A stretch of 64,000 nucleotides of DNA from Escherichia coli (GTDB taxonomy: Bacteria > Pseudomonadota > Gammaproteobacteria > Enterobacterales > Enterobacteriaceae): assembly GCF_017348835.2 (NCBI RefSeq), contig NZ_CP071375.1; one strand, given 5' to 3'. The notes under the pieces were generated by a model. That model worked only from the letters and a program-made list of their open reading frames with translations, searched no databases and was not told the DNA's origin. This document shows positions 39,268 through 39,984 of the stretch, one piece after another. The first letter of the stretch is position 1. Each line of letters begins with the position of its first letter. The position numbers and the translations under genes were made by a program.

Positions 39268-39282
39268 ACACTATCCCCTGCT

Positions 39283-39329
39283 TAAGTGCTACTTTATGCT
39301 ATCTTGCATGTAACACAAAGTAGCACTTA
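39283..39329 (+). promoter_or_regulatory. Putative operator/promoter of the toxin-antitoxin cassette: 13-bp perfect inverted repeat
   Basis: TAAGTGCTACTTT (39283-39295) and AAAGTAGCACTTA (39317-39329), 21-bp spacer, just upstream of the antitoxin RBS (AGGAA) and ATG at 39339. Confidence 0.55.
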
Positions 39330-39338
39330 GGAACTGAT

Positions 39339-39608
39339 ATGCAGACAGTGAAATTACGGCAACAAGGAGGAGCCATGATCGTTACTATCCCACGAGATCT
39401 TGCCACCGATCTTGGCTAGTCACCGGGCACAGAGCTTACCGTGGAGAAAAAGGGCGATAGCGTTAATTTACGCGCAACCGGGCACAAACCGCGTGGGCGT
39501 CTTACCGTCGCGCAGTTGTTGAGCCAGATCGATGAAAGCGAAATTACGCAGCTAAATCAGTCCACAGAAGGATGGGCTGAAGGGAAAAAAGGTAATGAAG
39601 CATGGTAA
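39339..39608 (+). pseudogene. MazE/PemI-like (AbrB swapped-hairpin) antitoxin frame interrupted by in-frame TAG at codon 27
   Basis: Frame ATG 39339 to TAA 39606-39608 reads MQTVKLRQQGGAMIVTIPRDLATDLG*SPGTELTVEKKGDSVNLRATGHKPRGRLTVAQLLSQIDESEITQLNQSTEGWAEGKKGNEAW; resembles MazE/ChpS/PemI including C-terminal W; absent from ORF track because of the stop. Confidence 0.65.
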
Positions 39609-39970
39609 AGGCACGGACGCCACATCGTGGTGAGATCTGGTATTTTAACCCTGATCCGGTTGCCGGGCATGAACTTCGGGGTCCACATCATTGCATTGTG
39701 GTAACGGACAAAAAACTCAACAATGTTTTAAAAGTTGCTATGTGCTGCCCGATTACAACAGAGGCAAATGCAGCACGTTCCACAGGGGTGACGGTGAACG
39801 TCCTCCCCCATGATACGCAAACCGGTAACCTGCATGGCGTTGTGCTCTGTCACCAGCTAAAAGCTGTCGATCTTATTGCCCGTGGCGCTAAATTTCATAC
39901 CGTTGCCGATGAAGCATTGATTAGTGAGGTGATCGGTAAACTGGTGAATTTAATCGACCCACAACAGTAG
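39602..39970 (+). CDS. MazF/PemK-family toxin (putative sequence-specific endoribonuclease)
   Basis: 122-aa ORF overlapping antitoxin stop (ATGGTAA); sequence pattern GEIW...DP..GHE...VV.....PIT......HGVVL.HQ...D...R typical of PemK/MazF/ChpB. Confidence 0.75.
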   Translation: MVKARTPHRGEIWYFNPDPVAGHELRGPHHCIVVTDKKLNNVLKVAMCCPITTEANAARSTGVTVNVLPHDTQTGNLHGVVLCHQLKAVDLIARGAKFHTVADEALISEVIGKLVNLIDPQQ

Positions 39971-39984
39971 CCCTGACTTATCAC

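Follow-up and report, generated by a model that had tools for sequence, protein, structure and literature searches.

Between the core genes rpnA (yhgA) and bioH, the 64,000-nucleotide stretch of Escherichia coli DNA analysed here (the window) carries a type II toxin-antitoxin module of the MazE/MazF (PemI/PemK) type, in which an amber codon stops the antitoxin frame at codon 27 and the toxin frame is intact. On balance we favour the view that this module is decaying "toxin first" and that the toxin allele is attenuated, inactive or otherwise tolerated, with Y30H as the candidate change. The first-pass annotation had described a complete two-gene cassette at this place, which the interrupted antitoxin contradicts. 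The pair is a new and experimentally unstudied addition to a well-known family; both proteins already carry family names in RefSeq, and the antitoxin is already flagged there as a pseudogene.

The cassette fills the space between rpnA and bioH

The window sequence and its ORF list place exactly 717 bp between the stop of rpnA at 39267 and that of bioH at 39985, as had been stated before (Table 1). The PE164 record matches the window 100% over 6.85 kb. In K-12 MG1655 the gap between the two genes measures 28 bp (AGTTCTGTCTCGCCATTTCAAAAGCCAC), in line with the few tens of bp given in the first-pass annotation, and only its last three bases are common to the window. The 3' end of rpnA is hypervariable over the last ~120 nt, and in its final 100 nt identity to K-12 drops to 78%, compared with 95-100% further upstream. 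We ruled out that this divergence is part of the inserted segment, because LRQEG, a conserved motif within the variable C-terminal region of Rpn, marks its start, and because the E. marmotae-type locus diverges there in yet another way.

We found no convincing target duplication around the cassette. The best direct repeat that spans it is 18 nt long, and it was treated as a chance match because it is weak (72% identity) and has one copy inside bioH. Mobility genes were not seen beside the cassette at the E. coli and Klebsiella spallanzanii loci. A tRNA scan of the window, run to look for a suppressor, detected no tRNA gene, a promoter and terminator scan of 39150-40100 returned nothing, and the PADLOC defence models matched neither the antitoxin nor the toxin.

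Table 1. Features of the rpnA-bioH interval, in window coordinates.
Feature	Position	Strand	Remarks
rpnA (yhgA)	38389-39267	+	Left flanking core gene; ORF; named rpnA in the identical record PE164
Putative operator, palindrome	39283-39329	+	Arms 39283-39301 and 39311-39329; inverted-repeat search
Shine-Dalgarno-like AGGA, antitoxin start	39329-39332	+	Anti-SD duplex -4.2 kcal/mol
MazE/AbrB-type antitoxin frame, 89 codons	39339-39608	+	Pseudogene in the window
Amber TAG in place of Trp27 (TGG)	39417-39419	+	Translation and allele alignment
GTG-initiated remnant ORF, 55 codons (Val35-Trp89)	39441-39608	+	In frame; hypothetical restart product
PemK/MazF-family toxin, 122 aa, ORF intact	39602-39970	+	Start overlaps antitoxin stop (ATGGTAA)
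bioH	39985-40755	-	Right flanking core gene; ORF and PE164 annotation

The toxin belongs to a separate branch of the PemK/MazF family

The 122-aa protein matched Pfam PF02452 PemK_toxin with an i-Evalue of 4.3e-19 (69.2 bits, model positions 2-105 of 109). Its best solved relative by sequence is Kid (1m1f; phmmer 1.6e-16, ~34% identity). An AF2 model of the toxin (mean pLDDT 88, pTM 0.82) likewise had Kid 1m1f as the top Foldseek match in the PDB (TM 0.79/0.89, rmsd 2.3), followed by MazF of E. coli, D. radiodurans, S. aureus and B. subtilis; the model thus predicts a Kid/MazF/CcdB-type SH3-like barrel. These matches bear out the earlier call of a 122-aa PemK/MazF toxin. The best NCBIfam model was that of the Agrobacterium MazF, on which the window toxin scored 91.7 bits against a cut-off of 150. 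The two K-12 equivalogs were also below their cut-offs (MazF NF007386, 43.0 vs 120; ChpB NF007320, 61.7 vs 129), and the first-pass annotation was right to see neither K-12 toxin here. Since all three equivalog scores fall under their cut-offs, the toxin belongs to a separate subfamily and is an orthologue of no named toxin.

All homologous loci share the same operon layout of two small co-oriented genes, with the antitoxin first and an overlap of stop and start codon. The genes are not chance ORFs, because the pair is conserved, adjacent and co-oriented in more than ten genera. A Shine-Dalgarno-like site precedes the toxin start (-4.5 kcal/mol) and is about equal in strength to that of the antitoxin. 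Folding of 39420-39660 revealed no significant RNA structure that would hide the toxin start (z = -0.77). By homology, the toxin of intact copies would be a sequence-specific, ribosome-independent endoribonuclease. From the MazE, Kis and ChpS relatives, the antitoxin would be expected to neutralise it by direct binding and to be proteolytically labile.

The closest characterised counterpart in structure is the Kis-Kid (PemI-PemK) system of plasmids R1 and R100 (PDB 1m1f, 2c06). Gene order is the same, and the antitoxin likewise combines an N-terminal DNA-binding domain with a C-terminal neutralising tail. In the toxin, Kid His17/Glu18 correspond to His23/Glu24, Kid Arg85 corresponds to Arg94, and the P-[IV]-[TS]-[ST] loop is present, with CCPIST as the substrate loop of the subfamily. 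Glu24 is invariant in the relatives compared, and His23 and Ser/Thr52 are also kept. The differences are equally clear. Kis-Kid is plasmid-borne, whereas the cassette described here is chromosomal and, in the window, lacks a working antitoxin. At the Arg-Pro position of Kid and MazF (Arg23-Pro24 in Kid) the subfamily has His29-Tyr30, with His30 in the window. The VVRCDQ segment of Kid is replaced by VVLCHQ, so that Arg73 and Asp75, the proposed catalytic residues of Kid, become Leu82 and His84, both invariant in the subfamily.

We take MazF Arg29 and Thr52 and Kid His17, Arg73 and Asp75 to be catalytic or substrate-contacting residues, and ChpBK to have Asn at the position of Kid Asp75. Rhizobium relatives (31-37% identity) share GVVLCHQ or LCHQ, a motif for which the search pattern had itself selected. 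Given the Asn of ChpBK and the LCHQ of the Rhizobium proteins, the LCHQ-type substitutions would be a variant within the family and not a defect or evidence against an RNase function.

The K-12 pairs MazE-MazF and ChpS-ChpB share the Pfam family, the fold and the MazF Glu24 and Thr52 positions with the module, and its antitoxin ends in G-x-E-x-W like MazE (GEPKDKEVW) and ChpS. In contrast, identity to MazF is ~28%, the position of the catalytic Arg29 is occupied by His, and the cassette lies at a different locus and outside the E. coli core genome. The best curated models are those of the Agrobacterium tumefaciens pair MazE-at/MazF-at (Atu0939/Atu0940; NF052488, NF052489), with 92-94 bits for the toxin and 36 bits for the antitoxin; these scores lie under the equivalog cut-offs (150 bits for the toxin, 130 for the antitoxin), and identity is about 35-40%. 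MazF-at is a growth-arresting endoribonuclease that is neutralised by its MazE, and mutation of Glu24 abolishes its toxicity (PMC8160871). Position 29 is still Arg in the alphaproteobacterial clade but His in the enterobacterial one; in this comparison the Rhizobium relatives were taken as MazF-at-like and stand in for the MazF-at sequence itself. The PGAP-annotated PemK/MazF pairs of Enterobacterales (WP_000237584.1, which is the O145 toxin allele, WP_053883633.1 and homologues) belong to the same subfamily. Our literature search found neither experimental work on copies of this Enterobacterales subfamily nor a paper on the rpnA-bioH cassette.

An amber codon interrupts the antitoxin frame

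The antitoxin frame of the window reads MQTVKLRQQGGAMIVTIPRDLATDLG, then a stop in frame at codon 27, then SPG. In all other alleles examined codon 27 is TGG. At about 14 loci, the close and mostly enterobacterial homologues keep Trp27, whereas the Pantoea copy and the distant relatives have Leu instead. An uninterrupted antitoxin is found in every non-Escherichia copy examined and in most alleles at the rpnA-bioH site. Consistent with our translation, RefSeq/PGAP lists the antitoxin gene of PE164 as a pseudogene with an "internal stop".

Family membership was assessed with the intact antitoxin of O145. This protein matched Pfam PF04014 MazE_antitoxin at 3e-5 (24.3 bits), the AbrB domain TIGR01439 at 1.7e-4 and the NCBIfam MazE of the Agrobacterium type (NF052488) at 6.8e-9. 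The matches are weak but consistent and agree with the PGAP name, and they point to a MazE/AbrB-type antitoxin. Profile searches with both proteins, which the first-pass annotation had proposed, recovered PemK_toxin and MazE_antitoxin; its antitoxin frame stands as to family and fails as to integrity, being interrupted at the amber codon. The intact protein could also be aligned over its full length with MazE, ChpS and Kis (21-23% identity). This alignment takes in the motif (S/T)-(L/V)-A-(E/Q)-L-L ... W ... G-x-E-x-W at the C-terminus of the antitoxin, the part that in MazE wraps the toxin.

Downstream of the amber codon, the Val35-Trp89 remnant includes the entire MazE-like C-terminal toxin-binding region of the alignment, and it has been deposited as "Antitoxin [E. 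coli D6-113.11]". The internal GTG at 39441 has no Shine-Dalgarno sequence above background (-2.5 vs a background mean of -2.3 kcal/mol).

A conserved palindrome precedes the antitoxin gene

The operator palindrome named in the first-pass annotation was recovered as an inverted repeat of 19 nt (arms 39283-39301 and 39311-39329) with 89% complementarity, in which 13 nt of each arm (39283-39295 and 39317-39329) pair perfectly. Its half-site GTGCTACTTTGT recurs 5' of homologous pairs in other genera: GTGCTAC(T/A)(T/A)TGT precedes the homologues in Klebsiella, Pectobacterium, Brenneria, Rahnella, Pantoea and Leminorella. Because the half-site is kept across genera, the reading of the palindrome as a putative operator has good comparative support. 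In other E. coli alleles the arms pair perfectly over 16 nt; in the window, G>A at 39296 breaks one pair. This mismatch is specific to the lineage and would be in keeping with decay. Between the arms, TGCTATCTT at 39297-39305 is, in our reading, a possible extended -10-like element; a two-hexamer promoter scan of 39150-40100 gave no promoter at this element.

The cassette is probably an old polymorphism of the genus

Comparison of the spacer across Escherichia, which had likewise been proposed, found the 717-bp cassette in 43 of the 5,426 complete E. coli genomes, with one chromosomal copy each and, in all sampled carriers, between rpnA and bioH. More than half of the carriers are O145:H28 and the remainder is scattered. 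Among complete carriers, identity to the window is confined to two pig isolates, PE164 and F2_81. K-12 and ~99% of the complete E. coli genomes lack the cassette. A protein collection holds the same pair from Shigella flexneri (at least 1000 contigs), Escherichia marmotae and unclassified Escherichia. Furthermore, one Escherichia locus (L011), whose flanks are 91-94% identical to the window, contains a 94-95% identical cassette in the same place, with an E. marmotae-type antitoxin. The first-pass annotation had suspected a strain-specific insertion. Absence from K-12 and from nearly all complete E. coli genomes agrees with this; occurrence at the same site in O145:H28, in scattered E. coli and in L011, together with the S. 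flexneri proteins, does not. The data fit a long-standing presence/absence polymorphism of the genus, with loss from most E. coli or reshuffling through homologous recombination, and not a recent strain-specific insertion.

Outside Escherichia, toxins of 55-95% identity with an intact antitoxin next to them occur in K. spallanzanii, Pantoea, Pectobacterium, Brenneria, Rahnella, Serratia, Photorhabdus and Gallibacterium. The more distant members, of 55-85% identity, are found in varied surroundings. The K. spallanzanii copy adjoins a LysR-family regulator gene, past which lies an adenine deaminase gene, and the Pantoea copy adjoins a YefM-YoeB pair. The Pectobacterium copy lies between cas3 and cse1, as already noted (PMC6963963). 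Plasmid copies of the same subfamily were restricted to Rahnella, Serratia and Arsenophonus, and the plasmid search found no copy on Escherichia plasmids; about 4,000 further plasmid matches below 60% identity are presumably ordinary plasmid PemK/Kid. A prophage origin was ruled out, as the phage collection gave only a 34%-identical Paenibacillus phage protein.

Toxin substitutions preceded the amber mutation

Window-specific changes were defined against eight other E. coli alleles and two outgroups, a set without three loci (L046, L047 and L041) that share several of the window changes. Relative to this set, the window alone has changes at 39296, 39418 (the amber), 39549 (E71Q) and 39981, the toxin substitutions Y30H, S52T and G54E, and, at 39470-39481, three synonymous changes together with E48G in the antitoxin frame. 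The three lineage-specific toxin changes are all non-synonymous. We ruled out S52T as an inactivating change, Thr being the residue of MazF and Kid at this position, and also G54E, position 54 being variable and Glu occurring in an Escherichia allele (P0004) as well. Because these two match residues of the family, Y30H is the one suspicious substitution of the three. His30 is unique among about 50 relatives, which otherwise have Tyr, Phe or Pro, and residue 30 adjoins the position of the MazF catalytic Arg. That Y30H weakens the toxin is nevertheless a sequence-based reading, and a single suspicious change out of three speaks rather against attenuation.

The window toxin protein (WP_053883633.1) is widespread, and an exact-match look-up placed it in at least 348 collection blocks. 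Loci L046 and L047 equal the window cassette except for G at 39418, which restores TGG and an intact antitoxin, and C at 39981. Since they carry the same toxin allele beside an intact antitoxin, the toxin substitutions came first and the amber mutation second. L041 combines the window toxin with an O145-type antitoxin and is a recombinant cassette.

The same TAG was found in 12 further loci (L042-L045 and L048-L055) from independent NCBI assemblies, ENA metagenomes and Logan assemblies, in addition to the two complete genomes PE164 and F2_81. Nine of these loci (L042-L045, L048, L049, L051, L052 and L055) have the window toxin with the amber antitoxin. In L053 and L054 the contigs stop inside the cassette and only the amber codon is visible, and L050 (E. 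coli D6-113.11) combines the amber codon with a toxin in which the family-invariant Gly10 is changed (G10V). The amber allele occurs on at least three different flank haplotypes. It is therefore real and tolerated in nature, and it is moving between backgrounds.

Nearly all amber carriers have kept exactly the same nucleotide sequence of the toxin ORF. Such conservation, which counts against decay, could reflect either ongoing selection or simply a young amber allele. Other toxin alleles at the locus are damaged. In O145 RM12275-C1 the toxin is frameshifted next to an intact antitoxin, and N-terminally truncated toxin entries of 75-76 aa come from S. flexneri (including the 2a strain 2457T) and E. 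coli; these alleles and the G10V toxin of D6-113.11 are in keeping with decay. Within Escherichia, toxin dN/dS ranges from 0.2 to 0.95, with very few substitutions, too few to discriminate.

How the loss of the antitoxin may be tolerated

In intact copies, by homology, an antitoxin dimer bound to the palindrome would repress the overlapping promoter. The 89-aa antitoxin would place its C-terminal tail in the RNA-binding groove of the toxin dimer and use its N-terminal AbrB/MazE domain to bind DNA, and the translationally overlapping 122-aa toxin, when free, would cleave single-stranded RNA at a short motif. In the window, the change of TGG to TAG leaves the cell without full-length antitoxin and hence without a repressor, and the N-terminal peptide of 26 residues cannot form a DNA-binding domain, so that autoregulation would be lost. 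No full-length antitoxin can be made and the cell lives; a toxin that is attenuated, inactive or otherwise tolerated is thus the most economical explanation. We infer an RNase activity of the family member, an effect of Y30H and a loss of function: the Y30H toxin may be attenuated, inactive or too weakly expressed, which would have allowed loss of the antitoxin, and any role in addiction or stress would be gone in this strain.

A second explanation, which we regard as unlikely, is a split system. Translation would restart at the in-frame GTG 22 nt past the amber codon (39441, Val35), and the resulting 55-aa fragment would neutralise an active toxin but could not bind DNA, so that the operon would be constitutively derepressed. 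The whole segment matched to the toxin-binding C-termini of MazE, ChpS and Kis lies within the remnant, and in PDB entries 5cqx and 5cqy residues 68-82 of MazE alone bind MazF. An unaltered toxin ORF in almost all amber carriers, on at least three flank haplotypes, also suits this explanation. Restart has a classical precedent in lacI, where early nonsense codons are followed by reinitiation that yields proteins without the N-terminal DNA-binding part. However, the GTG has a Shine-Dalgarno score at background level, and the tail alone, as a monomer lacking the N-domain through which the antitoxin dimerises, would bind less avidly. Moreover, the mutation of an invariant toxin residue in the amber carrier L050 fits continuing decay or counter-selection of the toxin, and not a stable system.

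Alternatively, an active toxin might be harmless in the amber carriers, either because a paralogous antitoxin (MazE, ChpS or a plasmid-borne PemI) neutralises it in trans or because uncoupling or polarity keeps its expression very low. This strikes us as quite improbable. MazE, ChpS and Kis share the architecture and the C-terminal motif of the antitoxin, yet identity is just 21-23%, and cross-neutralisation between such distant toxin-antitoxin pairs is generally weak. As for low expression, the ATGGTAA overlap makes it probable that translation is coupled in the wild type, and the amber codon halts ribosomes 180 nt upstream. Against this, loss of the repressor should increase transcription and not decrease it, and poor expression of the toxin agrees badly with its own Shine-Dalgarno-like site and with a start that no RNA structure sequesters.

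A more far-reaching version of the restart explanation, in which the amber allele is a naturally "uncoupled" system that recombination has carried into several E. coli backgrounds, with an active His-variant RNase checked only by the restart-translated 55-aa tail and a derepressed operon, appears very doubtful. Finally, the amber allele is one base away from the intact allele, but a sequencing or assembly error in a truly intact cassette has practically no probability and was ruled out, because the TAG recurs in two complete genomes and in 12 more loci across independent data sets.

Significance of the rpnA-bioH cassette

For the gene family the gain is small, since the module adds a PGAP-annotated, experimentally unstudied enterobacterial branch to PemK/MazF, and nothing in it is surprising to a specialist. 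Its value lies in a natural decay series at one fixed chromosomal site. This series comprises intact modules, a substituted toxin with an intact antitoxin, an antitoxin-null allele with an open toxin frame, an antitoxin-null allele with G10V in the toxin, and a frameshifted toxin with an intact antitoxin. It permits a direct test of whether chromosomal modules decay "toxin first" and of whether the tail of the antitoxin alone is enough for neutralisation. In addition, His29 and His84, which the subfamily has at the Arg and Asp positions of the characterised enzymes, offer a simple handle on MazF-type catalysis.

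Decay and Rearrangement of the Cassette

The cassette has not decayed in one way only. E. coli O145 RM12275-C1 (L005) presents the reverse decay state compared to the window at the same locus, as its antitoxin is intact and a 1-bp deletion shifts the reading frame of its toxin. In E. coli D6-113.11 (L050), the amber antitoxin is accompanied by a toxin in which Gly10, a residue that is invariant in the family, is replaced by Val; one synonymous change is present as well.

In the E. marmotae-type locus (L011), the operator and antitoxin codons 1-4 are missing. Their place is taken by a copy of the Shine-Dalgarno sequence and ATG internal to rpnA (AAGGAGAGTTTAATGACTATTGC...), and the encoded protein is therefore a chimeric antitoxin with an altered N-terminus. 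The junction lies within the coding stretch for LRQ(Q/E)GG that is common to both parts. This antitoxin (protein P0043; E. marmotae, 263 contigs) has no palindromic operator of its own.

Variation at the rpnA 3' End

The final ~120 nt of rpnA share ~78% identity with K-12 (L003), compared to 95-100% over the remainder of the gene, and this divergence sets in immediately past a conserved protein motif. The E. marmotae-type locus carries a third version of the rpnA 3' end, with a 48-nt insertion. The variable end looks like the hypervariable C-terminal region of Rpn proteins, unconnected with the cassette. Separately, we observed that in L047 (GCA_964290345.1), a carrier of the window-type toxin with an intact antitoxin, the ORF calls split rpnA into a 170-aa frame, which is cut by the end of the locus, and a 49-aa frame, and the gene may be disrupted there.

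Homologous Pairs in Other Genera

In three Pectobacterium loci (L013, L014, and L015), a homologous pair lies inside a type I-E CRISPR-Cas locus, with cas3 on one side, convergent with the pair, and cse1 on the other, divergent from it. A pemK gene downstream of cas3 was previously noted in P. wasabiae (PMC6963963). On a Pantoea-type contig (L012), a YefM-YoeB pair is found two genes from the homologous pair, and both are flanked by type III export apparatus genes (FliP/Bac_export families) and a secretin gene. This region is a small cluster of toxin-antitoxin modules.

Coordinates of the features described
Feature	Locus	Position
Frameshifted toxin	L005	635-1002
1-bp toxin deletion	L005	site of window 39805
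Toxin codon 10 (Gly to Val)	L050	window 39630
Synonymous toxin change	L050	site of window 39856
Chimeric antitoxin start region	L011	2700-2760
Divergent rpnA 3' end	window	39150-39267
rpnA, two ORFs	L047	1-866
Homologous pair	L013, L014, L015	2726-3366
Toxin-antitoxin cluster	L012	2732-4470
Substitution cluster, antitoxin frame	window	39470-39481
Crossover	L041	between window 39583 and 39642

Exchange Between Alleles

Within the antitoxin frame of the window, four of the lineage-specific substitutions (three synonymous and E48G) fall in 12 nt. Such clustering points to a multi-nucleotide event or a small patch of conversion, and less to point mutations that arose independently. The cassette of L041 (GCA_012064755.1) is a recombinant, in which an O145-type antitoxin is followed by a window-type toxin protein. 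Evidently, alleles of this 700-bp module exchange by recombination among themselves.
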